Counted from the whole stretch's first letter, positions 1 through 50,123 are shown. The stretch: DNA of 58,340 bases, filler included, from Dirinaria sp. TL-2023a (GCA_051941275.1; 7 parts of 7 records of this genome joined end to end with filler, not necessarily neighbours in it); one strand, 5' to 3'. Numbers and translations are program-made. The notes: generated by a model not told the origin, from the letters alone.

Positions 1-757
1 GGTCTAGGCCATCAAGGCTTTCGATTTTCTGGATCTTGTTCTGTACGAAGTAAAGATCCTTAAGTTTTTGTAAGTGGTTGACATTCTTGATGTGCTTGAT
101 GTTGTTGAAGCTGAGATCCAGGCTCGTGAGTTCTTTGAATGCTTCGAGACCTTTTATGTGGGATATCACGTTGTCGTAAAGGTCCAGCTCTTGTAATTTG
201 GCGCCAAAATCTTCGGGAAATTTAATGTGTGAGATGGCGTTTTGACGAAGGCAAAGTTTCTGAATGGTGAATGGTTAGCTAGCCTTGTAGCTCCATGGCT
301 GCTTATAGGCGTCGGCCTTCAGAACAGCGTACCTCTACTTCTTGGAACCGTTCGAGGCGTAGTGCAGGTATAGAAGAGATGCGGCAATGGACAAGGTCAA
401 TTTCCTACAACAGCAAGGGAAAGTCAGTATCTCTCGTAAATGGCTATACTGCATCGTACATCCGCATCCTCCTCGAGATCATCCAGCAAATCTACCAGAC
501 TTCCGTATCAGCAACGAATTCCGGGAAACTCCTCAAAACCTACCGTCATCGGCATCAATTTTCTCTACTGGTGGAGCATCCTCGTCCGAGTAATCTGGAT
601 CCGACAATATCTCGGCATTGGTGACTTCCACCTTTTTCCCAACGCGCAGCTTTCCATCCCATCCCTTGCTATCTCGAGGGATGGCGCCATTTGTTGAAGG
701 CTGAGGACTGGCACCGCCATCAATAGCCGCTTGAGATGACTCTGGGTTATCTGTCAT
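1..757 (-). CDS. SDS22: Protein phosphatase 1 regulatory subunit Sds22 (LRR protein); 3' part cut off at window/contig start; at least 3 introns
   Basis: The N-terminus has RDSKGWDGKLR and SDPDYSDEDAPPVEKIDADD. After splicing (first intron 543-492) it continues DLLDDLEEDAD / EIDLVHCRISSIPALRLERF / KLCLRQNAISHI...LQELDLYDNVISHIKGLEAFKELTSLDLSFNNIKHIKNV, which are SDS22-type leucine-rich repeats. Confidence 0.93.
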
Positions 758-1318
758 TCTTGTCTCGCTTTGTAAGAGAAAATTGTAGACTTGGTAAACG
801 GAAGAGAAAGTTAAAACAGCCCATGTGAACGAAGTACCTTAAGCCAAGAATCCCCCGATTCGCTTATGATAGATATGATTTGATAACAGGGTAAGCGATT
901 ATCGATTATCGCGGCTGATCGCCAACGCTAAAAGCACAATTAAAGATCTTCTGAAATTGAACTCTTCCTTTGTATCAGAACATTTGTGCTTCTTTTGTGT
1001 GCTTTGTTGGGAATGCTCAGGTCAGCTTTTGTGAGCGGCCTCATCAAGCCTATTTGAAAGCAAGTCCTCAAGATCGGATTTCAAATGCAGGTGAGGCAAA
1101 CAAGTGGACTTCTGCCTTGTTAGGTGGATTAGAACGCTCGGCAAGCCTCCACAATTTGTTAGAGAGCAATTGGTTGAATGTGTCTTATTGAACGATTTTT
1201 CTCTTTTTAAGGCTCCATGAGCCATGCAAATGGGTACAAGTGCCTAGTATAGGCACAAGTATATGCCTTAACCTCCTGACTTCCTGTTACCACATTCCTC
1301 GCTGAGTTCAAGGCGGTC

Positions 1319-1675
1319 CTAAGAACCACGCTTGTCCTTTTTTGCACGCCATTCTTTGTATGCTTCCACTAGCTCCTCATCATGCTCCTTGCAGAATTTC
1401 TCCATCTTGCTGTCGTCTTCGCCGGCGCACAAGTTTTCCAGGTCTAAGTCGTTCAGGAACTGTTGGACCTTGGACGCCGTAGCGCTATGGTATATCAGTA
1501 TATTTCCTTCATGGCAACATGGAGCCATATGGCAGAGGAGATACGTCTTATCTGAAAGGAGATAGCAACGTCTACACTTTCTATGCTGGCAGCGAAGACA
1601 GCGTAGCTGATCATGCTGGTTTACTCCTTCCTTGCAATTATGGCATCCCCATTCCTTCCCCTCTTTGCGCGCCAT
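1319..1675 (-). CDS. Small Cys/His-rich putative zinc-binding protein (cluster member 1, 118 aa)
   Basis: ATG at 1675 gives MARKEGKEWGCHNC-x11-CLRCQHRKCRRC, followed by a charged C-terminal tail. The motif is shared with three other ORFs in this contig. Confidence 0.65.
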   Translation of the reverse strand: MARKEGKEWGCHNCKEGVNQHDQLRCLRCQHRKCRRCYLLSDKTYLLCHMAPCCHEGNILIYHSATASKVQQFLNDLDLENLCAGEDDSKMEKFCKEHDEELVEAYKEWRAKKDKRGS

Positions 1676-2361
1676 GATACGAGGCGTCGGAAAATGGCGA
1701 CTGGGTGAGGAGCAAGGCGATTTGTGGATATGTTTGTATTTCAATGTGAGGGTGTGGGAGTGTGAGGATGTGAGATTGGTTGGATGAGTGTGCGGGTGGG
1801 AGATTTGTGAGATTTTGATTTATTGTGGTAGTGTAAAAACGGCACAATAATCCTCGCACTAGTATCTTATTCGCGTTACAGAAAGGTATGGTCCTTCATA
1901 CAAAGAATCAGCCCTTGCCGCTTATGGGGACATCAGTATTAACACTTGTTTAGACAGATAACATAAAGCAAGCCCCCTGCACAATCTGTTTGTGAAAGCA
2001 ATCTATCACACCCGGCAAGCAGATACAAATCCGAATCAGCAGATCTCTTCAGCCATCCATCTTCGAAAACGCCGAAGTCTCAGAATCCAAGAAGCGGCAG
2101 TCAAGATACGCAAACTTCAACGGTCTTCGCTCTCACGATCTTCAAAGCCTTGTCTCTGATATCCTTAGCCATGCAGTTCCAATGGCGAGTCTTTGGTTCG
2201 TCCGACCTGCACTCAAGCCAAAATTAGTCCAGCTGGTTCGTTGATTGCAGATCTACAGCTTGAGCCCGCAGCGATAGACTGAATAAGCTTTGTGTTTAAT
2301 TGAACTGACGGCTAGCTCGAGCAAAGCGTCAATGAGGTCATCGTTTTCCTACAACGTTAGA

Positions 2362-2577
2362 TCAATTCCTAGGAGTATCTCCATATACCGCACCGCCGGC
2401 TGATGCTGATGTGTTTTGACGTTGGAGGCTGTATTCCTGCCGGCTACTTGTTCGGCTTGGATTTATGTTGTGGTGTTCGCAACTACAACAAACAACGTGC
2501 GAGCATTTCAGACATTTCGGTGTGTGTTCTGACATCCAAGTGTCACCGCACTGACAGCATAACCACCCGCATATCAT
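2362..2577 (-). CDS. Small Cys/His-rich putative zinc-binding protein (cluster member 2, 71 aa unspliced)
   Basis: ATG at 2577 gives MICGWLCCQCGDTWMSEHTPKCLKCSHVVCCSC. A CTAAC...GTAG branch/acceptor near 2350 suggests it may splice onward toward about 2100. Confidence 0.65.
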   Translation of the reverse strand: MICGWLCCQCGDTWMSEHTPKCLKCSHVVCCSCEHHNINPSRTSSRQEYSLQRQNTSASAGGAVYGDTPRN

Positions 2578-3162
2578 TCTAGCTGTCCAGGACAGACTCA
2601 ACAATGTTTGAGTTGTGGATATGGCTGCAATAACCTGGCCCCGTAAAATGGGATTGCAGGATCTGTCTGCTTCGATATGGTAATATGACTTAGAAGAAGA
2701 TCAGAAATTGGTTGGCGAACTGGCAATTTATATCTGGAAGCGTCCTTTCAGAGTCATAGATTTTCGTTCATCTGGCTCACGAGGAGTCAGTTTCTATCCC
2801 ATTTCCTTGCTCATAGCGAGTCAAAATTGCTCATTATTTCCTCGGCCATGAAGAGTCTCGTAATTTCTGGGTGACCTTTATTAAAAGTCAAACGATCCAT
2901 TTGTGTCATTTCTCCTCGATCTATTTCTGATAGTAACGCAATCAACAATGGAGGCTTTCCCATTCCCAGGTTTAGAAGCTGTAATGGCCCATCTGTGAGT
3001 TCTGGGCACTTTTGAATCTGCCGGCGTTTTTTTTACAACAATGCATAAGGTATTATGCTTGGCATAGATGTTCGATACGGTCATGCAACGAGATTTTGCA
3101 GGGGGGGCCGGGACTAATCTGACGAGGCAAGTACTCGAATGGAAGTACAATATCCTACTATA

Positions 3163-4162
3163 CTAAACGTCAAGTTCTCCTCTGACGAACTCAAGCATTG
3201 CCGCGGCAATAAGTGTACCGTCGTGTTTATCATAGACCCTATTCATCGCATCACTGTACAGCGTCTTGTCTGTGAACCCAATAGCATCACCTGCTTTCAG
3301 CAACTCGAGCATAATTTCCTCGTTGAACTCGGGATGGCCTTGGAGGGTGATAAGCTTGCGTGGTAAATACATGCCTTGTACTTCGCAGACGGGCGATGTG
3401 CCAAGTGGTGTCACTCCTGGAGGATAGGAGCATACGATGTCGTGATGCATTTGATGGATTGCCTGCTTATTCATTAATGACTGCCAGGAACGTCTCTGTA
3501 GGCGGTTGTGGAAACATGCAGGACGATTTATCGATGAAGCTTTGACGGGAGATTGAAGAAGTCCCAAGGCAGGCCTCCTACACAAGCGGTGGCGATTGTA
3601 AAGGGTTCTTTGATAGAAGAAAAAAAGTTCAGCAGACAAGGGTAGACACACTAATTGATCTTTACCAAACATTTTGGCACCAAGCGGCAGCATATCTACC
3701 TTACAGACACTCATTTCGTATCCAAGACTATTGATCGCCCCTTTTGCGCCGAGCGCACGGCCAACGATCTGATGACCGAAACAGAGCCCGATGATCGTGA
3801 CATGATGGTGCGCAAGTACTTGCCGAACATACTCGACAAGCTTATCGATCCATTCGATATCATCGTAGGCGCTGAATCCTGAACATTGCTTCAACACCGT
3901 CTCACATTAAAGGCCGTGTAATTGAGTACTAGGACATACTCGAGCCGGTGATCACTATCGAGTCGACTTCTTCTAAGCCAGGATAAACTTGTCTCTCATC
4001 TACATTCCATACTGACAGCGTAAGCTCATCAAATGGAAGGCCGATACACTCGGCACCGGCTCGAAAGAAGGCTGCCACGACGCCCCCGTAGTCGCCGTAT
4101 GTTTTACGGATAGCTTCTGTTAAGGGATCGCAATCAAGAATAGCGATGCGGGTAGGTGCCAT
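3163..4162 (-). CDS. Class I glutamine amidotransferase-like protein (stand-alone, YLR126C-like); 2 introns
   Basis: It starts RIAILDCD and has VITGS(R)FSAYDDIEWIDKLVEY, the nucleophile motif GLCFGHQ, IHQMHHDIV and the catalytic QGHPEF. Introns lie at about 3939-3880 and 3651-3463. Confidence 0.9.
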
Positions 4163-4619
4163 CTATCTCGGTCGTATTCAAGCAAGCTTTCTTGCATCCT
4201 GATAAGTGAAGGCTCGTTCCACAAGAGGATGCTCCTCTTGCTTGAGTCACGTGATGGTATTCTTATCATCGTATCAGAAGCCTAAATGACGGGATGTTCT
4301 GCTGGGTTTCTGTTATCGATCTTTGAAGATCATTGCGGTTTCTGCGACGGCTGCTTCCGCTTCGTCGTTTGTTATCTTTCGCGCAACCGCCAACCATGAG
4401 ATCACAATCTAACTGGGTTAATCTCCTTCTGTGTTACGTTGTCGTTGAACTTGTTTGACAAGAGTAATTTATGGCTATGAGAACGGACGGGTCAGTCATA
4501 AGGTAATGACCGAATGCCGGTCTAGGGGTCAGAACCGGCAGCTTAGCATGTGGAGCAGCATGGTGTGAACAGTCCATTGCCGCGACCGAGCTTCGTCTTC
4601 TCAGTTTCCAGACAAAAAA

Positions 4620-4710
4620 ATGACACTCAGCACAAGTGTCAACATCCGAGGCAAATGCGAGGAGGCCGAGGAGGACCACTAAATGGTAAACATTTGGTGC
4701 AATAACGCAG
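4620..4710 (-). pseudogene. Probable decayed copy of the small Cys/His protein family
   Basis: One frame reads LRYCTKC-x12-CLGC*H, then after a frameshift CAECH (compare CRICRHRRCAECH in the 5906-6049 paralogue). There is an internal TGA and no in-frame ATG. Confidence 0.4.
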
Positions 4711-5905
4711 ACAACGGAATTTGACTGAGGGGCTGGTTACTTATGACGATGTATCAGACCCACCTCTATCCTAATGATCGTTCATTCTGACGGTCTGTCC
4801 TTGAATGGTGTTAATTCACAAGTACTCCATACTCCGTACCACACACAAAAGAAGAAGAACGTCGCCGTAGTGGCTAGCGGGATCAATGCCACTAATGCAG
4901 CGGTTAAATGGGTGCTGCCCAGAGCCCCTAACGACCACATCAAATTTCACCGTCAGCACCTCTTAGCGCTGATCGCCCTGGCCATGCCTTTTGGTGAGAT
5001 CCTCCGTAAATCAGTAACATCGGGTCGTCATGGAGATTGAGGTTATGCAAATGAGGGTTTAGATATCTGGGTCAAAGCAAAGCTCCACTTATTGATTTCA
5101 GTCCGTCTATTTGTGGTTGATGCAATGGGCAATCGGGTCGGAGCAACGCATACCCTTCAGCTAACGAATCTCAGAACTTATTGGAGGCTCAGCGCAATCA
5201 GCAAGGCGAGCTCCAGATCTATCTTATTTGGGCAATGGTCATCTACGATCAGAGGAATACAGATATTACGTCTTTGCGAAGTTGAGACTTTCTTGCCATG
5301 GATCACGTGGACTTCAGGGTATGGCCGATCTATCAAGCTCTGGAGATTTCCAGCCTCCTATGAATCGCCAAGAAACCCATATGAACGGGCAAACGAGAAA
5401 AACAATTTGTGTCAGTCTTAATCTTACTTTACGTTCAGGCCGGTTTGTTCATTGATATGACTATTTATCAAAAATGCACGGTTTCAAATTATGCATCAAC
5501 CCCATGCTTTGAATGGAATGAGTCTGAATCATCTAATATTCCAAGCAGACAAACTTAAATAACATACTACAATTCACCAATCTCGGTTACTAGCTGCTCA
5601 GGTATAAGAGTTAAATTGTAAAATCGAACCATAGAGGTGCACCTTGAACCTCGCCCCCAAAATGCAAGTATTTAAGGTCTTTCGGCTCACGCTTCTCAGA
5701 GCGTTTTTTTACAATAGTGTAATGTCAAATAGCAGGCTGCGCAAGGATAGCAGGCTGTGCAAAGATATCTCCTTCATGTCCTCCACAATCGACTTCACAT
5801 CAAGCTTCCTGTGGTGGGGTTTCCGACGCTGCACTGAGTCAGAGCTTGATCCGAAATACTACTGCAGCTTCGGAATCAAACCTAGCTCTTCTCGGCGTTG
5901 CCAAC

Positions 5906-6049
5906 CTAGCCCAAGTACTCGACGTGGCATTCTGCACATCTTCGGTGGCGGCATATCCTGCAGCGGCCCTGCCTGTAAGAGCTATTCCAGATCCTGTATC
6001 CTCCACTGGCACAGTGACAGCACCACCAGCCATGGACCCTTGAGAACAT
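5906..6049 (-). CDS. Small Cys/His-rich putative zinc-binding protein (cluster member 3, 47 aa; below the ORF-track cutoff)
   Basis: Hand translation: MFSRVHGWWCCHCASGGYRIWNSSYRQGRCRICRHRRCAECHVEYLG*. The start context CAAC-ATG is favourable and the full family motif is present. Confidence 0.7.
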   Translation of the reverse strand: MFSRVHGWWCCHCASGGYRIWNSSYRQGRCRICRHRRCAECHVEYLG

Positions 6050-7348
6050 GTTGGTAGCGCTTGGTGAAAGGTTGGTGTTAAGTAATAGAGGGATAATTGA
6101 TGACTGTTTCAGTTAAAGAAGTAGCTGGTTTTATCAGACTGACGCTTTTAGCAGATAGAGGCCGATCATGCACAGTGTTAAAAAGTAAAAGAAATCTCGA
6201 AACAAGGCAAGCAGTTCGGGATTAATACACGAAAACTCATTCTTCAGAGTCATATCCCCAGCTCGAGGTTCTCTTACTCAAATTCACATTTCATGAAGGC
6301 CTACCTCTCGGTCATCACCCTTCGTCAGTCATGGTCGACAAATTTGATTCAGCTCATGATAACCTCATGCATGCTATCAGGTATTGAAACTGCAAAGGAA
6401 CCTTATTACTCAGTAACGCAGTCCTCATACTTAAAGAGACTTGTTTGCTAACAAACTGTGTTTGCTGACTATTCATCATGAACTATAAGTTCTCTCTAGC
6501 ATCTCCAGCATAGCCTCACATGAAACTTGTGCAAACTTGCCGAGCATACTACAAATGCGTGTTCACACATGTTACGATACCACAAAATTGCGGTCTCTTC
6601 TCAACAACTTGGTAATGACATACTCCAATTCAAGATGTTGTGCATGACTCTGAGCGGGTTTGAAATTCAAAAAAAGAGCAAATAAGATTGATGAAGCCTG
6701 AATCCACATGCCAGATCCGTCAAACTCGGATCTACATCATCGATATGGCTCATGTTTTCGTTTTTCGTCGTAGAGCTTTACTTTTCTTTGCTATAGTTTG
6801 CGCCAGATCCTCGATTATGATCTCCGATATTTACTCCGATGTCCATCCGCTCTCATGATCTGCAAGTTATAAACACGGACAGACCCCCGACCCGAAGCCA
6901 GATCCTCCCAGCAAAACCAATCTCCTACGTCCTATTCAATCTTCATGTTTTCATACAAACTCAGCAATGTGTGAACTACCCCGGATCTCATTCTATGAGT
7001 CTGAGACATCTATCACGCAGGGGCTGTGCTGGCTCTAAGGTTTCGTCAAAGATGGCGTGGCTTCACTGTTTCCTCCCTGCCTTTGTCATACCCAGCTTTC
7101 GTGTCTTCAATCTCCTTCCCCCTGCCAACAATCCTATATGATCCATCCTTTAGCAGTGTTTCTCTATTTCTTTCTCTCCTCTACTTCTCTTGCTACCCAA
7201 TCATATCACATGATTCCCTCCATTCCCTCATAACCCTTCCAAAACCGATTCTTGTCTTACAAAGCCCCCAAAAAACTCGAACCTCCTTCAACAGAGATCC
7301 GAAGAAGAAATACAATATCTGCCTCACATCTTCTCTATCCTCCCAAAA

Positions 7349-7804
7349 ATGGTCAACGGATGGTGGTGCCACGTCTGCCCCCTCGCCAACCGCCGGCGGA
7401 TGTGGATGTCCTACCACAAGACCCAATGCACAGCGTGCGGGCACCTGGTCTGCAACCTCTGCTTGTGGGACGATATCGGCAAGGTGACCGCCAGCTCTCG
7501 GTCTCACCAACATCACAGCCAGCAGGGGCCTTCTAATCGTAGACACGGCGGAGGAGGAAGAGATATCCCTAACATCACAACCACCTCATCTCTGGACGAA
7601 GACCTCAGTCGCCTTTTTCCAGATGATTTCCCCACGAACATCCCAATTCCGAGCTCTTCAACGGGCCAGCAACAATACACCCTCGCAGAGCCATCGAATC
7701 TCGTCCCTGCGACTCAAAAGCAAGAAGAAGAAGAAGGAGCGCATCCTTGCCAGGGAGAAGAAGGCGTTTGTTGGTTGGGCGATATTGAGATGAAGAAAGA
7801 GTAA
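7349..7804 (+). CDS. Small Cys/His-rich putative zinc-binding protein (cluster member 4, 151 aa)
   Basis: AAAA-ATG start; MVNGWWCHVCPLANRRRMWMSYHKTQCTACGHLVCNLC followed by a low-complexity tail. Confidence 0.7.
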   Translation: MVNGWWCHVCPLANRRRMWMSYHKTQCTACGHLVCNLCLWDDIGKVTASSRSHQHHSQQGPSNRRHGGGGRDIPNITTTSSLDEDLSRLFPDDFPTNIPIPSSSTGQQQYTLAEPSNLVPATQKQEEEEGAHPCQGEEGVCWLGDIEMKKE

Positions 7805-8295
7805 TTTAGGGAAAGAGCGGATGGCGAATAGCGAAGAGCAATGGTCTAGAAAAGGAATTACACAACTCCATGAAATAGTTTTCATAGATAAAGGAAGTTT
7901 CTGGTTTGAGACCTTTCTTCTCTCTTGTTACCAAAATTTCCTATCTCTCATAGCCTACATATCTTCCATTCCTTTTTTTTTTTTTTTTTTTTTTTTCTTT
8001 TTTCTTTTTCTCAAAATCCGGACCATTGAAACAAGACCCCCTCTCCGCGCAGCGAGCGCGAGTGCACAATTTCCTCATCCTAATCCCGTCGCCCTCCATA
8101 TCCCAACCCTACCTCTTTTCCAATCTCCTTTCCCCCCTTTTCTCAATCCCACTCAAAGAAACCAAACTTTCTCCCTACCTACCTACCTACCGCGCCTCCT
8201 CCTCCCCCTCTCTTCTCCTTTATCAGACCCAGAACCAATAGATCGATCACATGTGCCATCCCTTTTCCCCCTCTCTTGGCTTGGTATATATACCC

Positions 8296-8395
8296 NNNNN
8301 NNNNNNNNNNNNNNNNNNNNNNNNNNNNNNNNNNNNNNNTTAATTAATTAANNNNNNNNNNNNNNNNNNNNNNNNNNNNNNNNNNNNNNNNNNNN
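8296..8395. other. Artificial contig-joining linker (N44-TTAATTAATTAA-N44)
   Basis: 100-bp spacer with a core giving stops in all six frames; identical at six places in the window. Confidence 0.99.
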
Positions 8396-16679: not shown

Positions 16680-16779
16680 NNNNNNNNNNNNNNNNNNNNN
16701 NNNNNNNNNNNNNNNNNNNNNNNTTAATTAATTAANNNNNNNNNNNNNNNNNNNNNNNNNNNNNNNNNNNNNNNNNNNN
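16680..16779. other. Artificial contig-joining linker
   Basis: N44-TTAATTAATTAA-N44. Confidence 0.99.
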
Positions 16780-17128: not shown

Positions 17129-18562
17129 TTAAGCCTGGAAAGCCTTGCCACCGGCCTTAGCACCGAAGATCTTAGAGCGTTTGTTCTTTTTGCACATCGT
17201 GGAAGTGGCATTACCACTTCCACCTGTAGGCTGCGCCACGGGCGTTGCGGTGCCCGAAAACGTGCGATCGCTGAGGCTGATCGTTGGAACGCCCGGCTCG
17301 GCGGACTTCAGCGCCGTTGGTTGGACAATCTTGGTGCTTTTGGGCAACGTCACCATTTTGGTCGATTTGGCCGCGACTGGAGACGAAGGAGAAGAGGCTT
17401 GCACAGTCACTGTCACCTTGTCGGTCACGGTTTTGGCTGCCGGAGGGGAAGCTGCAGCCGGTGGTGGAGCCTGTGGTGCTGGAGCTGGGGCCTGTGGTGC
17501 TGGGGCTGGAGCCTGGGGTGCTGGAGCTGGAGCTTGTGGTGCTGGGCTAGCGGCTGGAGCTGGAGGAGGCGTCGATGCAGCCGGGGCTGTGGTTGCTGCT
17601 GCTGGCTCACTATTCGCGTTGCCGGAGCCTGCGAGTTTCTCTCCAGCGGGTAAGGCGGTTGGTGCGTTGAGCGGCTTTCCAGCTGCGATGGCAGAGATCT
17701 GGCCAGCGACACCGGCGGAGTCGAGGTTTTGGCCTTGTTTGAAGCTTATCGACGACTCTGCCTTGTTATTCGAGGCTTGGCCATTGACGTTGATGTCCAT
17801 GCAAGTGGTGTAGAATTCCAGCTTTCCGTTGGGAACGCCGGGAGTCCCTGGAGCCGTCGGCCAGTTCCAAACCCAGTAAAGTGTATAAGGCTTGCCGGAA
17901 GGAGCGTCGGTAGGGAGCTGGAGGTCGTTCTGACACCACAAATCGGCTCCCATGGTCTGGTCTGCCGTGTGGGCGTCCTGCTTTTGGCGGCTTTGTGAGA
18001 TAGCGCCACCATTGACTTGGTAACACTGGCCATCATCATAGTTGAACGTGGCCAGGAGTTTGCCTTTTTTGTTTCCTCCGCTTCCATCCGTATTCCATTT
18101 ATTGAAGATGTCGAGGAATTTGTCATCTGGGGAAGATTGAGTAGTTCCATAGACATATATCGTACCGCGGTTCTCCGGCTTTCCGGGTTGATTTTGGGGT
18201 AGTGTGACGTGGCCGTTCTCCTGGTAGCGGAGAGCGACCATGTCACCGGGAGCGGCATTGAGCCTAGGGCTGCCAGCAGTCTGAGTTTGCTGTTGCTGGT
18301 GGCCCGGGAAGCACATTGTGTCGGATGGCAGGACACCTTGAGTCGGATCACGGCCGTCGGGAGGGAGGAGGTAGACCATGCTCTTGTCAACAGCGGCATT
18401 GCCCTGTCGCTGGACATTACCGCGTGCGAAGCCAGGGGCGCCAGTGAAGGTACCGTTGGGAGCGATGACATCGAGTTGTTCGATCCACGAGTGTGCGGAG
18501 GCGGAGGCGGAGAGAAGAGCCAACGCCGCCAGGGCGTTAGCTGCTGTCTTGAGCGAATGCAT
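17129..18562 (-). CDS. Secreted LPMO-like protein with N-terminal His and Pro/Ala/Thr-rich C-terminal region (477 aa, intronless)
   Basis: ATG at 18562; the signal peptide ends ...SASASA|HSWIEQ. Other motifs are YQENGHVT, four Cys in the globular domain, and YTLYWVWNWP...EFYTTCMDI, which resembles the last strands of LPMO-fold proteins. The ORF is well supported; the LPMO-like label is inference. Confidence 0.8.
   Translation of the reverse strand: MHSLKTAANALAALALLSASASAHSWIEQLDVIAPNGTFTGAPGFARGNVQRQGNAAVDKSMVYLLPPDGRDPTQGVLPSDTMCFPGHQQQQTQTAGSPRLNAAPGDMVALRYQENGHVTLPQNQPGKPENRGTIYVYGTTQSSPDDKFLDIFNKWNTDGSGGNKKGKLLATFNYDDGQCYQVNGGAISQSRQKQDAHTADQTMGADLWCQNDLQLPTDAPSGKPYTLYWVWNWPTAPGTPGVPNGKLEFYTTCMDINVNGQASNNKAESSISFKQGQNLDSAGVAGQISAIAAGKPLNAPTALPAGEKLAGSGNANSEPAAATTAPAASTPPPAPAASPAPQAPAPAPQAPAPAPQAPAPAPQAPPPAAASPPAAKTVTDKVTVTVQASSPSSPVAAKSTKMVTLPKSTKIVQPTALKSAEPGVPTISLSDRTFSGTATPVAQPTGGSGNATSTMCKKNKRSKIFGAKAGGKAFQA
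17466..17549 (-). repeat. Coding minisatellite, about 4 x 21 bp (APAPQAP)
   Basis: GGAGCCTGTGGTGCTGGAGCT-like units in tandem, encoding the Pro/Ala linker. Confidence 0.85.
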
Positions 18563-21500
18563 TTTGCGCGTTGTAGGTAACGAGTTTTCTGAACTAGGTA
18601 GAGCGTCCTGCGCGATGTATGATGAGATCACGGAGATCGAGAATAGATTATGAGATGATGTTCTACTTGGGAAGTATTCTTGAAGTGGGTAGAAGTGAGG
18701 TCGTGGGGAAGAAAATCTAGAACTAACAATGCATGGCCAGCATGTAGAGATCTTATAACAAAGCTAGAAAGACAATAGAGAAGTGAAAGAGGGCCGTTGA
18801 GGTTGGGACAATGGCGTCGTCTACAATGGATTGTGATGAAGAGGCAAGTAGGAAAAGGTGTTCCCAACAATGGGCATTCACCGAGGGAAGAACAAAGAAG
18901 AGGTGAACAGGCACCCGCAAAGCTTTGAAACTCGACAATAGCATTGTGATCCAGGTGCACATTCACTGAAGGGTTGAAGGTGGGATCTGTTCATTACTTT
19001 GGTGGGACGGTCACTGGAGTTGTTGAAAGCCAATGGAGTTGGTGGGCGCGTTTGGTGCCAAACGCAGTCGGGGTTCACATCACAGTGGCAATTCATAGCT
19101 GATATCCAGTCAAAGTCTATGTCTTCGTGCAATGGAGAGTCTAGATGCGGCTTCGTGTATCGCAGGCCTAGTGAACTCGTTCAACGATAGGCGCAATGCT
19201 CGACGGCGTTTGGTTGGCGATGTGTTTACGGGTCAACAGAGCTATTGTTGGGTATCAGGAGGCATCCGCGAAATGGCGTGCTTCACTCAACACCAGCTGG
19301 TTCTTGATCTGGATCTATTCCTGTGGCCAGGAAGCGATAGAAGTTTTACGGGGAATGCGCTGTTTGAGGGTTGAGGTTCCATGACCAGTGAAAGGTGCAG
19401 TGCGATCACCAGCTGGGGGTTGTTTCAGGTTGGTTCTATTGGACGATGTTTCGTGTTTCGTGTTTTCGTGTTTCGGATTCGGGATAAATTTCGGGATTTC
19501 GGCTTCTGCCCCCGGTTTCGTTCTTGGCGCCCGAGGTTCGTGACAATAGGAAGCACTCACTGTACCTTAGAAAATGATGTATGAACGAAGACAACCAATT
19601 TCACCCCCTCACCTACCACTTTCTATCGTCAAATCCTTCGGTTGTATCGCAAACGTTCATTAGCTGCTTTGCCATCATGCGGAGCAATCATCGAGACATG
19701 GACTGGCTCCTCCCCATGAAGACTGACCCCTCTACTATGATGGAAGATGACTCCTCTAAGGAGGATCTGTTCATACACAATCTCATCATACATTTCTAGC
19801 TCTCCAATCCAGGCTCTGCAGAAAACCTGGTCATATTGAAATTGTTGCCGAGCACGGTACGCAATGCAATTGGGTTCCTGCGTTGTGGAACACATTACCC
19901 CGACAAGCCGTTCAATCCACGCTTGCCTAGCACCGAGCCCACTCGTCGGTATACCTAACTTCTCGTCTAGCAATGCCTCTCTTGTTCCTGTGCCTCGTCT
20001 CAGTTCCGTTGTGGCAATGCTCCGAAAGTCTCCTCATCGACACCTGATAACGCCAGTCGATCCTCCACCAGCCGCGTCTGTTCTGTGATCTCTCCTTTCC
20101 TAAACGTAGTCTTCCTTTAGGAAGTTCCTCGCTGGCCCGGTGCAAGATAAAAATGGCAGGAACGTTGGTGTGAAATTTTCCTGGAGAGCTAGCGAATGGG
20201 CTTGTCAGTTCTAGGCTCATCGGCGACAAGAGGGGTGGCCCTGTAGCCATCGAAGGGGGCGTCATCGGGCATAACCGTACGTCTGGGAAGGAACGTTACA
20301 CCTGCATGGGCAGGAGAACGGCGGGGACTGATTGCTGTATCAAGATGCAAGGTGAGAATGGGAGATAGCGTGAGCAGATGCTGTTAACGGAGATGTAGAG
20401 TGAGGGCGATCAAGAGAAAAGACGTTCCTGCAGTGAGCACTCTTATCTTGATAATACATGAAGAGCGTGGGGTGGGAAATCATACATATGTATCCTGCAT
20501 GCATGTACCTGCCCTCATGAGGAGAAGCGGCAAGGATATGCACTGCAAAGCTCCGATTGCCGTACAGAGTCACAAGACGCCCTCGCTCGAGATGATCGGA
20601 TGAGCTGTTGCAGAATTACATCGCGAGAGCCTGAACCGCCATCGTCGGCGATTATTGACTGTTTTGATAGCATGAAGCCGCGTGATGGGCTCGTGAAATC
20701 AGGAGCAGTCGTTTGGGAGCCGGCTCTTGAATGAATATTCTCTAGTTGCTGAAGATGGCTTTCGCTCGACAACTCTAGAGACGCAACACCATCCTACGTG
20801 CAAGCCAGGTTGCCTTGTCAAAGGAGAGCAATCCTGCTGGTCTGCTCCGAACCACATTCCAAGGGGCTTCGACATGTGACACTGGAATTTGACGAAGAAA
20901 ACCAGCATCGAGGAAAGGACAGCCTCTGACCGTGTCCAGGACCATGTTTCGACGTCCATACAAACTCAGCACCATTCCACAAAGTAAGTTGCTGGCAAGA
21001 CCACAGAGGTGGAAAGGCGCGGAATAAGAACGTTGAATTCCACAACGCGGCAAGCCTGAAGCTTTTCAGGAGTCGGAAAGTTTCTGTGTCACCGCCACAA
21101 AGGCTGTTCGTTTGGTGCGTCTTACTGCGAGGCTAAAGTATCCTAATGCACAGATGACACCAGCAAAAATAATGACCACCTGGTAAGCGAGAAACCGTTG
21201 GAATTGCCTGGTCGTCCCTGGCCCAAGAGTGGAGAGAGCGCGGAAATAACGCCACGTGCAAAAAGATGTCAGCAGATGCGTTGATTATCATCCTTTTTTT
21301 CATTCTTTGCATTCTCACATACATATTCGGTCGGCTTTATCGCGCTCTTGCAACACCGACGGCTGATCTGGATGTGAGTTGCTGCAGCATCGAAAGCGCT
21401 TGGGAACGAGGATGCAGGACCTCAAGGTAGGGATTCTACGAACAACGGTCGCTTCCCTAATTTCCGTCGTACTCGTACCATCATGAACCAAATATGCCAA

Positions 21501-22285: not shown

Positions 22286-24249
22286 ATGTGGTTTCCAAAG
22301 CTCTGCGCGCTTGGCCTGTTGGTCAGCGCTTCACGCTCGTTGTGTAGCAATGTCTATTTCGAGATTAGCCTTACCTGGGCGCAGGGAGCTCCGGATGGTC
22401 AATCCAGGAACATGATCTATACCAATGGGTCGTTTCCAGGGCCACCGCTGATCGTGGATTATGGCGACTTTGTGACTGTATGTAGCTTCGTGGTCCCGAG
22501 AATATGCCTGAACAGAGCTCTAATATGCTGCAGTTTGTCGTCCACAACCAGATGCCCTTCGACACCTCAGTGCACTTCCATGGCATAGAGTACGCTCTGC
22601 AATCAATCTGTCCCGACTGCGGAAAGCTGACTGCAATCTAGACAGCTTGGGACCCCTTGGTCTGATGGTGTACCGGGAGTTTCTCAAAAGCCTATTCCAT
22701 CCGGTGGCAGCTTCACGTATAAATGGTCCGCTCTTCAATCTGGTGCATACTGGTATGTCGCCTTCCACTGATTTGAAAATTCGATGCTGACGTTGCACCT
22801 AGGTACCATGGCCATGCAAAAGGCCAGGTCCAGGATGGTCTGTACGGCCCAATCTACATTCGTCCTCCACCGAACGCGCCTCAGCCATTCTCGCAGTTTG
22901 CGAATGGCAGTCAAGATCTTGCAGCAATGAAGAAGGCAGACGAAACGCCAAGACTGGTGATGCTATCAGACTGGGATCACCTGACTTCGGACGAATATTT
23001 GGCCGCGGAACAAGCGTCCAACCTGGACACTTTCTGCGTTGACAGCATGCTCGTCAATGGCAAAGGCTCGGTCAATTGCCAGCCGCAGTCATTACTAAAC
23101 AATCTGACGCTACCTCCGCTGCTGCAGCTTCTCAATGGCTCTTTCGTCAGTGATCGGGGATGCACTCCCCCGGTACAAAAAGCGTTGGACGAGGGGAATT
23201 TCACAAGCGACATCACCAAGCTGCCACCGGGCTTGATCGACGGCTGCAAACCTACGAACGGGAGTCAAGAGATCATTGAGGTGGATGCTAAAGACGGATA
23301 TGTCAGCATTCACTGGATCAGTGCCATGAGTATCAAGACCCCTGTCGTTTCGATCGACGAGCACCCGATGTGCGTCTTCGCTGTGGACGGCCAATACATC
23401 CAGCCTCAGCCCGCGGATACCATCTTCATGTACAACGGGGAGCGATTCGCAGCGATGGTGAAGCTCGACAAGCCGCCAGGCGACTACACCATCCGTGTAG
23501 CAAACTCGGGCGCGGATCAGCTCATCTCCGGCTACGCCACTCTGCGCGTAAAGGGTAATGACTCAACATCTACCTCGCCCACGCCAGCGTCGACCTCAAC
23601 CCCCTACATCAACTACGCCGGCGGCAACGTCTCCGCGTCCGTCATCCCGCTGGACGAAACGAAACTCGTCCCCTTCCCCGCGTCCAAGCCGGCTCCCACG
23701 GCCGACGCAACGCACTTCCTGAAATTCGGCCGCCTGAACGCGAACTGGGAATGGACCCTCAGCGGCAACGGCTCCTACCCAGAAACGGCCGACTACCAGC
23801 AGCCGCTACTATTCTACCCGAACAGCACCGACGCGCACAACAGCTCCCTAGTCTTCCGCACCAAGAACGGCACCTGGGTCGACGTCGTCATGCAGGTCGT
23901 GCTCAACGCCGCCGCGCCCGCCCAGCCCGCTCACCCCATCCACAAGCACAGCAACAAGGCCTACATCATCGGCGCGGGCAACGGCGTCTTCAACTACTCC
24001 AGCGTCGCCGACGCCATCCAATCCATCCCGGGCAGCTTCAACCTCGAAACCCCGAGCCTGCGGGACAGTTTCGCCACCCCGTCCGTGCTGCAGGGCCCGG
24101 CCTGGGTCGTGTTCCGGTACCAGTCCATCAACCCGGGCGCGTTCTACGTGCATTGCCATATCCAGACGCATTTGACGGGGGGGATGGCTATGACTATTCT
24201 TGATGGCGTCGATGTTTGGCCTGAGGTTCCGCCCGAGTATCAAATCTAG
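22286..24249 (+). CDS. Secreted laccase-type multicopper oxidase (CAZy AA1, Abr2-like); 3 introns
   Basis: Signal peptide plus all four copper motifs across exons: SVHFHG, YWYHGH, HPIHKHSN and HCHIQTHLTGGM (Met axial ligand). WSDGVPGVSQKPI is also present. Confidence 0.95.
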
Positions 24250-25046: not shown

Positions 25047-25146
25047 NNNNNNNNNNNNNNNNNNNNNNNNNNNNNNNNNNNNNNNNNNNNTTAATTAATT
25101 AANNNNNNNNNNNNNNNNNNNNNNNNNNNNNNNNNNNNNNNNNNNN
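25047..25146. other. Artificial contig-joining linker
   Basis: N44-TTAATTAATTAA-N44. Confidence 0.99.
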
Positions 25147-33383: not shown

Positions 33384-33483
33384 NNNNNNNNNNNNNNNNN
33401 NNNNNNNNNNNNNNNNNNNNNNNNNNNTTAATTAATTAANNNNNNNNNNNNNNNNNNNNNNNNNNNNNNNNNNNNNNNNNNNN
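33384..33483. other. Artificial contig-joining linker
   Basis: N44-TTAATTAATTAA-N44. Confidence 0.99.
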
Positions 33484-41704: not shown

Positions 41705-41804
41705 NNNNNNNNNNNNNNNNNNNNNNNNNNNNNNNNNNNNNNNNNNNNTTAATTAATTAANNNNNNNNNNNNNNNNNNNNNNNNNNNNNNNNNNNNNNNN
41801 NNNN
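41705..41804. other. Artificial contig-joining linker
   Basis: N44-TTAATTAATTAA-N44. Confidence 0.99.
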
Positions 41805-50023: not shown

Positions 50024-50123
50024 NNNNNNNNNNNNNNNNNNNNNNNNNNNNNNNNNNNNNNNNNNNNTTAATTAATTAANNNNNNNNNNNNNNNNNNNNN
50101 NNNNNNNNNNNNNNNNNNNNNNN
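50024..50123. other. Artificial contig-joining linker
   Basis: N44-TTAATTAATTAA-N44. Confidence 0.99.

Follow-up and report, generated by a model that had tools for sequence, protein, structure and literature searches.

Closest Described Domains

RanBP2-type zinc fingers bind Ran-GDP, ubiquitin or single-stranded RNA and follow the PROSITE pattern W-x-C-x(2,4)-C-x3-N-x6-C-x2-C. The members of their Pfam family, PF00641 (Zn_ribbon_RanBP), include the ubiquitin-binding NZF fingers of Npl4, TAB2/3, Trabid and HOIP, the Ran-GDP-binding fingers of Nup153 and Nup358, and the RNA-binding fingers of ZRANB2, FUS and RBM5. For ubiquitin binding, NZF fingers use a Thr-Phe pair located directly after the first knuckle and a later hydrophobic residue. 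The module found in the four ORFs described here has the same first knuckle, W-x-C-x2-C, and the same second knuckle, C-x2-C (in all four ORFs and in 122–127 of 128 distinct domain copies, those of the window not excluded). A length of about 30 residues and frequent tandem occurrence with disordered linkers are also common to both. However, the spacer between the knuckles is 11–16 residues long here and 9–13 in the relatives, as compared with 10 residues and an Asn at position +4 in the RanBP2 pattern; ORF1 has an Asn at +5, and Met is found instead in ORF2 and ORF4. Moreover, the RanBP2-type finger has a single Cys4 site, whereas the module carries four extra near-invariant ligand positions, namely a Cys or His after Cys1 and those of the x-H-x2-C-x2-C element. 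The NZF Thr-Phe pair is absent, since the residues following C-x2-C are, as read by eye, KE, GD, AS and PL in ORF1–ORF4, respectively. None of the contact motifs known for Ran, ubiquitin or RNA was recognised in the four ORF sequences.

Three other domains deserve comparison. PF26652, Zn_ribbon_double ('Probable double zinc ribbon domain-containing protein', the Pfam 38.1 label in the ESM Atlas), likewise occurs in small proteins restricted to Ascomycota, and its name could denote two zinc sites as well as a pair of ribbons in one protein. In the Atlas, both ORF4 (0.78) and the relative P0036 (0.82) have it as one of their nearest named clusters; these scores are leads only, because they are below 0.9. 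No paper mentioning PF26652 was found in the literature. The rubredoxin-like C-terminal domain of rubrerythrin (PF21349) gave the best match of the family profile to PDB sequences, which is not significant (E 0.0022); the alignment covers W-x-C-x2-C...C-P-x-C-x-H, including the His past the second knuckle, and sub-threshold Pfam matches to PF21349 were found in three of 46 domain sequences. Unlike the module, PF21349 has a single Fe(Cys)4 site, belongs to bacterial and archaeal enzymes and lacks the trailing x2-C-x2-C. Finally, the IBR/RBR domains and other cross-brace binuclear fingers (IBR, ZZ, FYVE, RING) use eight ligands for two zinc ions, as the module may do, and the IBR/Rcat domains carry a similar C-x-H-x2-C element. 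Weak Pfam matches, far below gathering, were indeed observed for IBR_1 in 8 of 46 domain sequences (best E 0.012) and for FYVE in several relatives. However, the first 28 residues of the ORF1 model appear to have ribbon geometry rather than a cross-brace, and many family members end 3–5 residues past the last Cys, too early for a fourth pair of ligands.

Organization of the Locus

The window, that is, the whole stretch of DNA analysed (58,340 bases), consists of seven contigs joined via N44-TTAATTAATTAA-N44 spacers; only the fungal contig at 1-8295 (8,295 bases) is physically linked to the four-ORF cluster. The features of this contig are listed in Table 1.

Table 1. Features of the contig at 1-8295 carrying the four ORFs.
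Feature	Position	Strand	Description
LRR (SDS22-like) exon, left contig end	2..274	-	Pfam LRR_4 E 1.7e-12, LRR_8 E 1e-9
ORF1, 118 aa	1319..1675	-	Putative N-terminal zinc module, motif 1565-1651, spacer 11, 81-aa tail
ORF2, 71 aa	2362..2577	-	Putative N-terminal zinc module, motif 2479-2565 (W-L-C-C-Q-C...), spacer 11
Class-I glutamine amidotransferase-like gene	3163..4162	-	Pfam PF00117 E 2.9e-7
ORF3, 47 aa	5906..6049	-	Putative single-domain microprotein, motif 5927-6028, spacer 16
ORF4, 151 aa	7349..7804	+	Putative N-terminal zinc module, motif 7361-7462, spacer 16

Each of the four ORFs carries W-x-C-x2-C-x(11,11,16,16)-C-x2-C-x-H-x2-C-x2-C at the place given in the preliminary description. 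A six-frame search of the whole window for W.C..C-x(8-20)-C..C.H..C..C returned exactly four matches, all of them in 1-8295, and none in the other 49,505 bases. Neither the full motif nor the short core C..C.H..C..C occurred in 500 mononucleotide shuffles of 1-8295. The motif does lie near the start Met, as had been noted: the Trp is residue 9, 5, 8 and 5 in ORF1–ORF4, and in every case the open frame has its first ATG at the start Met, 4–8 codons upstream. The motif residues of ORF1 are W9, C11, H12, C14, C26, C29, H31, C34 and C37. Two further elements ascribed to three of the proteins, G-W-[WL]-C and W-[MN]-S, were found in ORF2, ORF3 and ORF4.

The remaining parts of the proteins differ. 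The C-terminal tails past the last Cys are as unequal as had been reported (81, 38, 6 and 113 aa in ORF1–ORF4); that of ORF2 is Ser/Thr/Gln-rich, that of ORF4 is low-complexity and acidic, and ORF3, with a net charge of +6, ends soon after its last Cys. There is no DNA-level repeat, and the bases in common are essentially those of the Cys, Trp and His codons, in agreement with the lack of obvious DNA similarity noticed before. The proposed absence of signal peptides also holds in a hydropathy scan: in the four ORFs, nothing in the first 40 aa resembles a signal peptide, because no 10-residue window has a mean Kyte–Doolittle hydropathy above 1.6, the only measure used.

Two neighbours of the cluster lie outside the zinc-module family. 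The SDS22-like LRR exon, which had been named as the neighbourhood of the cluster, does share the contig with the four ORFs. The glutamine amidotransferase-like gene is located between ORF2 and ORF3 and comprises two open stretches, 3932-4162 and 3166-3906; no counterpart of it was found beside the relatives in the 94 loci examined.

Family Membership and Distribution

A profile built from the four motif regions, the approach suggested in the preliminary description, recovered a family. At E<=1e-3, it matched 36 proteins among 1,835,955,588, one of which is the window's own and 35 of which are other small proteins; 34 of these 35 contain at least two matched stretches. A DNA-pattern scan added 42 further distinct domain copies from 48 metagenome loci. 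When an HMM was built from 102 outside domains only, the four ORFs ranked as the top four among 11,707 ORFs, with 33.6 bits (E 1.4e-8) for ORF1, 18.2 bits (E 8.7e-4) for ORF2, 17.6 bits (E 1.4e-3) for ORF3 and 14.1 bits (E 0.017) for ORF4; the next-best window ORF had E 1.7. The value for ORF4 is borderline alone, but searching the other way, from the profile of the four copies, leads back to the family. A narrower leave-out HMM gave 30.4 bits (E 1.3e-7) for ORF1 and a weak score for ORF2 (E 0.14).

Judging by these sequence searches, the module defines a large, uncharacterised family of Ascomycota. Its members are mostly two-domain proteins of 100–250 aa or single-domain ORFs of about 45–60 aa, whose size and layout are those of ORF3; in other layouts, two modules are separated by long linkers or the module is joined to large proteins. 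The family is not confined to this locus but is spread across Ascomycota. On the other hand, the idea of an under-annotated family of small Cys/His-rich, presumably metal-binding and non-secreted proteins is borne out by the relatives and the outside-only HMMs. In a name look-up of 10 clusters of relatives, all four named clusters were labelled 'hypothetical protein', and one belonged to a Xylariomycetidae fungus.

The position of the module is also characteristic. In 17 of 32 complete cases among the relatives, the first Met is 4–22 aa upstream of it, and C-terminal domains are followed by a tail of <=10 aa before the stop in 28 of 42. Thus, all four ORFs of the window, in which the module is at the N-terminus, share with the family its location at the extreme terminus of a small protein. 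The spacer of the outside domains is 9–13 residues (mode 12, n = 60), and the value of 16 in ORF3 and ORF4 falls outside this range.

Structure Modelling and Likeness to RanBP2-Type Fingers

The AlphaFold2 model of ORF1 residues 1–43 had a pLDDT of 80.5, whereas the model of ORF4 residues 1–44 was poor (pLDDT 55.8). RanBP2-type fingers (NUP358, Nup153, Trabid NZF) made up 13 of the top 15 PDB rows in a Foldseek search with the ORF1 model; several superpositions on Nup153, NUP358 and NZF had an rmsd of 0.6–0.7 Å over 26–28 residues with 22–31% identity, and all had E >= 0.77. VIA-align placed TAB2 NZF (Z 3.9), Nup153 (Z 3.8), and RBM5 and Npl4 NZF (Z 3.7) close to the model. The RanBP2-type fingers as a whole scored Z 3.6–3.9, ribosomal-protein zinc ribbons scored equally, and no Z reached 5, so no structural match of the ORF1 model is significant in either search.

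Sequence comparisons point in the same direction. The family profile matched the Nup153 fingers among PDB sequences with E 0.005–0.011, and P0036, a typical relative, was assigned (0.93, 205 shared features) to an Atlas cluster of 110 ascomycete members automatically named 'RanBP2-type domain-containing protein'. No Pfam family was found above the cut-off in the modules or tails of the four ORFs with a library that lacked PF26652, and PF00641 did not match them even at E<=10. Among the 35 relatives, one PF00641 match was listed at E<=0.01, its 19.7 bits being below the gathering cut-off of 27 bits, and 4 of 46 domain sequences matched at E<=1 (best E 1.9e-4).

On the basis of the model, the module thus resembles the RanBP2/NZF zinc ribbon, to which it appears to be related, with additional conserved ligands. 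The RanBP2/NZF class was missing from the patterns compared in the preliminary description, according to which the motif had no nameable relative; its W-x-C-x2-C...C-x2-C part, at least, is modelled as such a ribbon, and the named Atlas cluster runs against that statement as well. It had also been said that the novelty would be lost with a confident match to a domain already well characterised. This is only half the case: the likeness to RanBP2 fingers is consistent, yet it stays below threshold, and the RanBP2 domain takes in just half of the conserved ligands.

Coding Status of the ORFs

The four ORFs are probably genuine fungal protein-coding genes, each with one N-terminal zinc module of about 35 residues that may serve for binding; the fungus is most likely one of the Ascomycota. 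ORF4 is present in public collections as a predicted protein called by a public pipeline (P0005, 150 aa). Among the relatives, the 60-codon single-domain ORFs L005, L042 and L054 have pN/pS values of 0.23–0.40, while the 300 bases upstream of them are only 56–71% identical.

A reading in which the ORFs, all or in part, are dead duplicates (family relics that decay or are not expressed) is unlikely, although several observations would fit it. Searches of two public protein collections gave no predicted protein for ORF1, ORF2 or ORF3, and no close orthologue, at or above about 50% identity, turned up for any of the four. Their codon-usage log-odds are not above those of 292 null ORFs (0.29, 0.93, 0.99 and 0.31 of the null ORFs reach or exceed the scores of ORF1–ORF4, respectively), and only the tails score like known genes. 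The spacer of 16 in ORF3 and ORF4 and the tails without a recognisable domain can be added to this list. However, gene callers routinely overlook short ORFs, and all four copies retain the open frame, the start codon shortly before the Trp and all eight ligand positions. Ligand codons account for about a quarter of the module, so decay should strike them first; they are intact despite a divergence that has left almost only the Cys, Trp and His codons in common.

Ligand Conservation and the Question of a Metal Role

The eight ligand positions and the Trp are invariant in the four window copies and agree with the family columns. In the 128 copies, conservation was found for Trp in 122, Cys1 in 127, Cys3 in 124, Cys4 in 126, Cys5 in 127, His in 126, and Cys7 and Cys8 in 125 each. 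The earlier observation that the Cys/His ligands were kept while the remainder diverged can thus be extended to the family, where they are near-invariant. The His and the final pair of Cys vary no more than do the four Cys of the ribbon. The residue following Cys1 is Cys or His in 112 of 128 copies (C 74, H 38, D 3, S 11, G 1); this proposed eighth ligand is therefore Ser in 11. Because these four positions are conserved at the level of ligands, we infer a second zinc site in the module.

Part of the preliminary proposal, in which adaptor, regulator and metal sensor were named as possible roles, was a metal role. Buffering, storing, sensing or chaperoning zinc or copper, in the manner of metallothioneins, would agree with the high Cys and His content (11 of the 47 residues of ORF3, 18 of the 118 of ORF1) and with the small size of the proteins, the local duplication of their genes and the lack of a signal peptide. 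Such a function in place of macromolecule binding is nevertheless distinctly improbable. The module has a rigid ribbon-like ligand pattern, a near-invariant Trp and a predicted beta-sheet core, and rigid ribbon patterns typify structural zinc sites, whereas metallothioneins have flexible Cys clusters. Furthermore, relatives often have two modules on long linkers or a module on a large protein, and these layouts fit interaction domains.

Relations among the Four ORFs

ORF2, ORF3 and ORF4 are among one another's closest matches, while ORF1 is nearer to outside members than to its neighbours. The local amplification suggested earlier is accordingly plausible for the first three and does not extend to ORF1. 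The cluster probably arose from old duplications, with ORF2, ORF3 and ORF4 as a loose group and ORF1 derived from another subgroup.

The outside matches also bear on the reading of ORF2 and ORF1 as two exons of one gene. The best matches of ORF2 are 'CCQCGDGP'-type domains and those of ORF1 are C-terminal 'W.CH.C..NNP'-type domains, which mirrors the two-domain layout common in the family ('CC-x-C-G-D' type, then 'C-H-x-C...N' type); both ORFs are on the minus strand, in the correct order and 686 bases apart. Yet no canonical fungal splice donor is present in ORF2 past the domain, and no in-frame GT...AG join onto the ORF1 open frame was found. The intron needed would be about 600–750 bases, and fungal introns are usually far shorter. 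ORF1 also has its own first-in-frame ATG and a long tail, in contrast to the short ends typical of the relatives' C-terminal domains, and a single split gene is thus very improbable. As for chance ORFs in non-coding DNA, their short length could suggest them, but the zero counts in 500 shuffles and in the remaining 49.5 kb from this genome, and the two-way searches tying the four ORFs to a family of >100 domain copies, effectively refute this reading.

Proposed Mechanism and Role of the Module

In the four proteins, the module would bind two Zn2+ ions. Site 1 would be a classical zinc ribbon formed by Cys1 and Cys3 of the first knuckle and Cys4 and Cys5 of the second, with the conserved Trp packed on top. 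The ligands of site 2 would be the residue after Cys1 (Cys/His), the His two residues past Cys5 and the final C-x2-C; this site would hold the C-terminal strand against the ribbon. The outcome would be a very small, rigid intracellular binding module, and the variable, mostly low-complexity tails (6–113 aa) may be disordered or may be a source of specificity.

The four-gene cluster is real, but only moderately unusual, because the module is part of a large, unstudied small-protein ascomycete family. By analogy with the RanBP2-type fingers, the role of the module is most likely the zinc-dependent binding of protein or RNA partners, rather than catalysis or secretion.

Cluster of four Cys/His-rich ORFs

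The window consists of seven contigs placed in order of decreasing length, the first of 8,295 and the last of 8,217 bases, and joined by N44-TTAATTAATTAA-N44 spacers; since they are separate contigs, features located on different pieces are not physically linked. Piece 1 (1–8295) is a whole contig, as the public entry of the ORF4 protein gives 8,295 bases for its longest contig. A six-frame scan of the 58 kb with the pattern W.C..C-x(8-20)-C..C.H..C..C gave exactly four matches, all of them on piece 1, while the other 49,505 bases of the window and 500 shuffles of piece 1 gave none. The spacers between the Cys knuckles in the four ORFs are 11, 11, 16, and 16 residues. The cluster of four ORFs, each with one N-terminal copy of the module of ~35 residues, is thus a real feature, and the ORFs are located where the preliminary description placed them. 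The other traits it had listed were also recovered, namely the G-W-[WL]-C and W-[MN]-S motifs in three of the four copies, unlike tails (6–113 aa), the absence of DNA similarity between the copies, and, in keeping with the claim that signal peptides are missing, the lack of a hydrophobic N-terminus in all four ORFs. Directly after its module, ORF1 has an extra Cys/His-rich stretch, C-H-x3-C-C-H (residues 38–66), which is absent from the other three copies and could provide further metal ligands.

Coordinates of the module ORFs, their surroundings, and selected ORFs of related metagenome loci
Feature	Sequence	Position	Strand	Remarks
ORF1	window, piece 1	1319-1675	-	118 aa
Extra Cys/His-rich stretch of ORF1	window, piece 1	1478-1564	-	residues 38-66
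ORF2	window, piece 1	2362-2577	-	71 aa
Class-I glutamine amidotransferase-like gene	window, piece 1	3163-4162	-	open stretches 3932-4162 and 3166-3906; between ORF2 and ORF3
ORF3	window, piece 1	5906-6049	-	47 aa
ORF4	window, piece 1	7349-7804	+	151 aa
Poly-T/CT-rich low-complexity tract	window, piece 1	7940-8295		3' of ORF4, reaches contig end
DUF7492 protein	window, another contig	17132-18763	-	E 9e-113
Multicopper oxidase	window, same contig as DUF7492 protein	22777-24246	+	~4 kb from DUF7492 protein
Spacers between contigs	window	8296-8395, 16680-16779, 25047-25146, 33384-33483, 41705-41804, 50024-50123
Tandem module ORF	L006	5986-6177	-	64 codons
Tandem module ORF	L006	6413-6610	-	66 codons
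Module with Asp_protease_2 match	L069	4813-6129	-	439-aa open frame
Degenerate module copy	L058	472-750	-

The two stretches of the glutamine amidotransferase-like gene are apparently separated by a short intron. A long low-complexity tract terminates the contig, and another contig of the same assembly carries DUF7492 protein and multicopper oxidase genes. Pfam matches in the other pieces (Nup84/107, PPR, proteasome, eIF2B, NIF phosphatase, RasGEF, multicopper oxidase, and DUF7492) indicate that the source is eukaryotic, evidently a fungus.

Relatives of the module

Word-indexed searches with a profile built from the four copies found nothing among proteins of 23–83 aa and only ORF4 itself among longer proteins; the profile of a 26-protein family returned only five proteins in such a search. 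When the four-copy profile was run exhaustively with HMMER against 1.84 billion representatives, 36 proteins were retrieved at E<=1e-3, namely ORF4 and 35 others (86–363 aa; best 43.5 bits, E 2.4e-6). At least two matched stretches are present in 34 of the 35 outside proteins, a bias towards two modules that is partly a scoring artefact, because the scores of two modules sum. In the alignments, the common layout is an N-terminal module (W-x-C-C-x-C-x-D-G-P...), a Pro/Ser-rich linker, and a C-terminal module (G-W-W-x-C-[CHS]-x-C-x3-N-N-P-x-L-...-C-x2-C-x-H-x-K-C-x2-C) followed by the stop codon a few residues later. Ten protein clusters were checked; four of them are named, all as 'hypothetical protein', and one is from a Xylariomycetidae fungus.

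A scan of metagenomes with a DNA pattern modelled on the WW-type module gave 87 loci, with the motif in frame in 64 and not in frame in 23. Before alignment, 16 in-frame loci were excluded (13 with low-complexity Cys repeats, two RING-like, and one doubtful), leaving 48 loci with 42 distinct domain copies. In these copies, the module lies at the very start or the very end of the protein: the first Met lies 4–22 aa upstream of the module in 17 of the 32 complete cases, and the tail is no longer than 10 aa in 28 of the 42 copies. About ten copies are single-module ORFs of roughly 45–60 codons, similar to ORF3. As a prokaryote control, the same pattern was run against the GTDB genome collection, where it matched seven stretches, none convincing: three do not keep the reading frame, two consist of TG-rich low-complexity sequence, and the remaining two, though in frame, are isolated and lack the family features.

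In some relatives, the module is joined to larger proteins, as in the 439-aa ORF of locus L069 and the 1,023-aa ORF of locus L011. The latter has no family match above the Pfam cut-off. In the former, the module is N-terminal and the middle part matches Asp_protease_2 (E 1.5e-5), so in this ORF the module may have been fused to a retropepsin/Ddi1-like protease.

With HMMs built from outside sequences only, ORF1–ORF4 are the top four of 11,707 ORFs. The 102-domain HMM gives 33.6 bits for ORF1 (E 1.4e-8), 18.2 bits for ORF2 (E 8.7e-4), 17.6 bits for ORF3 (E 1.4e-3), and 14.1 bits for ORF4 (E 0.017), the next ORF of the window having an E of 1.7; the respective E values with a narrower 42-domain HMM are 1.3e-7, 0.14, 0.0065, and 0.028. 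By these scores, ORF1 is a clear member of the family. ORF2, ORF3, and ORF4 are divergent members, which the reverse search with the four-copy profile also ties to the family.

Coding status of the ORFs

Several observations speak for ORF1–ORF4 being genes. The Trp and all eight ligand codons are intact in DNA that is otherwise unalignable; each open frame has its first ATG 4–8 codons ahead of the Trp, as in the relatives; and a public set lists ORF4 as a predicted protein. In the related 60-codon ORFs of loci L005, L042, and L054, pN/pS is 0.23–0.40 and the flanks are far less conserved. Against this, searches of public protein sets with the four-copy profile did not recover ORF1, ORF2, or ORF3, nor was a close orthologue of any of the four ORFs found in the protein sets searched. 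Codon-usage log-odds did not separate the four ORFs from null ORFs.

History of the cluster

The local amplification proposed in the preliminary description holds in part. In a comparison of pairwise scores that included 102 outside domains, ORF2 and ORF3, at ranks 2 and 3, are the closest partners of ORF4, which in turn is ranked 10th by ORF2 and 17th by ORF3; this supports a loose grouping of these three. ORF1, however, is nearer to outside C-terminal-type domains, and its neighbour ORFs take ranks 26–94. These ranks point to an old and mixed cluster and not to a recent burst.

More than one separate module ORF was found in four of the 19 relatives' loci of at least 7 kb (L006, L043, L058, and L059), none of which reaches four. 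Locus L006 contains two ORFs ~240 bases apart, each of which has its own Met seven codons ahead of the Trp and stops 5–8 codons past the last Cys; the same pair is present on the shorter L044. These are tandem single-module microprotein genes of another fungus-like contig. A tblastn search of the glutamine amidotransferase, the SDS22-like LRR exon of piece 1 (2–274, minus strand), and three of the ORF tails against all 94 retrieved loci gave no match, and no conserved gene neighbourhood around the module relatives was found in them. The order of ORF2 followed by ORF1 resembles the layout of the two-module proteins; splicing of both into one gene was rejected, as no canonical splice donor was found.

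Predicted fold and putative second zinc site

The AlphaFold2 model of the ORF4 domain, based on a 32-row alignment of whole two-domain proteins, was poor (pLDDT 55.8). That of the ORF1 domain, based on a 46-row domain alignment, reached a pLDDT of 80.5 and contains three short strands. Foldseek comparison of the ORF1 model with the PDB gave no match at E<=0.001; 13 of the 15 top rows are RanBP2-type fingers (NUP358, Nup153, and Trabid NZF1), several of which superpose with an rmsd of 0.6–0.7 Å over 26–28 residues. In VIA-align, none of 48,161 chains reached Z>=5 with the same model, and the top rows are mixed (ribosomal zinc ribbons, 4.0; TAB2 NZF, 3.9; Nup153, 3.8; RBM5 and Npl4 NZF, 3.7). 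The family profile matched the rubredoxin-like domain of rubrerythrin (E 0.0022) and Nup153 fingers (E 0.005–0.011) among PDB sequences, and a typical relative falls, with a score of 0.93, in an Atlas cluster of 110 members from Ascomycota whose automatic name is 'RanBP2-type domain-containing protein'. Each of these lines is sub-threshold on its own; together they say that the first ~28 residues of the module probably form a RanBP2-like zinc ribbon.

Among 128 distinct domain copies gathered by HMM without a regex and with no exclusion of the window's own copies, the His is conserved in 126, the last two Cys in 125 each, and the four ribbon Cys in 124–127. The residue directly after Cys1 is Cys in 74 copies, His in 38, Ser in 11, Asp in three, and Gly in one. 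Four Cys suffice for RanBP2 fingers. Given this and the near-invariance of the extra ligands, we infer a second zinc site, which would consist of the Cys or His at position 2, the His, Cys7, and Cys8, and would tie the C-terminal strand onto the first knuckle. Variants with Ser after Cys1 would have only three ligands left for it. In a degenerate copy of locus L058, the residue after Cys1 is Gly and the His and both final Cys are lost, while the four ribbon Cys are kept. Such a joint loss of all four proposed ligands fits a single co-dependent site, albeit as an anecdote.

Comparison with known domains and possible function

Of the known kinds, the RanBP2-type zinc ribbon comes closest to the module; however, the module is not filed as such because its spacer, Pfam score, and number of ligands do not fit. 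With the Pfam library of 24,736 models, which lacks PF26652, no family scored above the cut-off for ORF1–ORF4, the 35 relatives, eight longer domain-bearing ORFs, or 46 domain sequences. PF26652, 'Zn_ribbon_double' (Pfam 38.1, Ascomycota), is a weak Atlas neighbour of the module proteins (0.78 and 0.82). Should PF26652 and the module be one domain, the family would already have a database entry, albeit an uncharacterised one; a literature search at listing level found no description of the module or of PF26652.

The best-supported reading is that the module is a rigid, very small intracellular unit that would hold two zinc ions and present a binding surface, with the variable tails of ORF1–ORF4 being mostly disordered. 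Known partners of RanBP2 fingers are Ran-GDP, ubiquitin, and ssRNA. The Thr-Phe pair of NZF fingers is absent from the modules of ORF1–ORF4. Their net charges (+6 in ORF1 and ORF3, +2 in ORF4, and -1 in ORF2) make RNA or an acidic partner possible for some of them, and the attachment of the module to larger proteins (L069 and L011) speaks more for an interaction domain than for a metal store. A fuller reading, which we put forward only tentatively and consider rather doubtful as a whole, is an undescribed binuclear zinc fold in which a RanBP2-like ribbon is combined with a 'clasp' site formed by the C-terminal H-x2-C-x2-C and the Cys/His beside Cys1. It would define a large Ascomycota-specific family of microproteins of ~50 aa and two-module proteins diversifying by local duplication, whose members might serve as small zinc-dependent regulators or decoys of a conserved partner, e.g., a ubiquitin-like protein, a small GTPase, or RNA.

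The finding is a domain of unknown function and no new principle in itself. If the reading is true, ascomycete genomes hold many tiny genes, some of ~50 codons, for a compact zinc-binding module, and most gene callers overlook them, as with the three of four here that were not found in the public sets. The family would represent a minimal zinc-binding scaffold on a RanBP2 finger, probably with two zinc ions, and would illustrate the growth of a microprotein family through tandem duplication. Identifying the partner of the module could reveal a fungal-specific regulatory layer.
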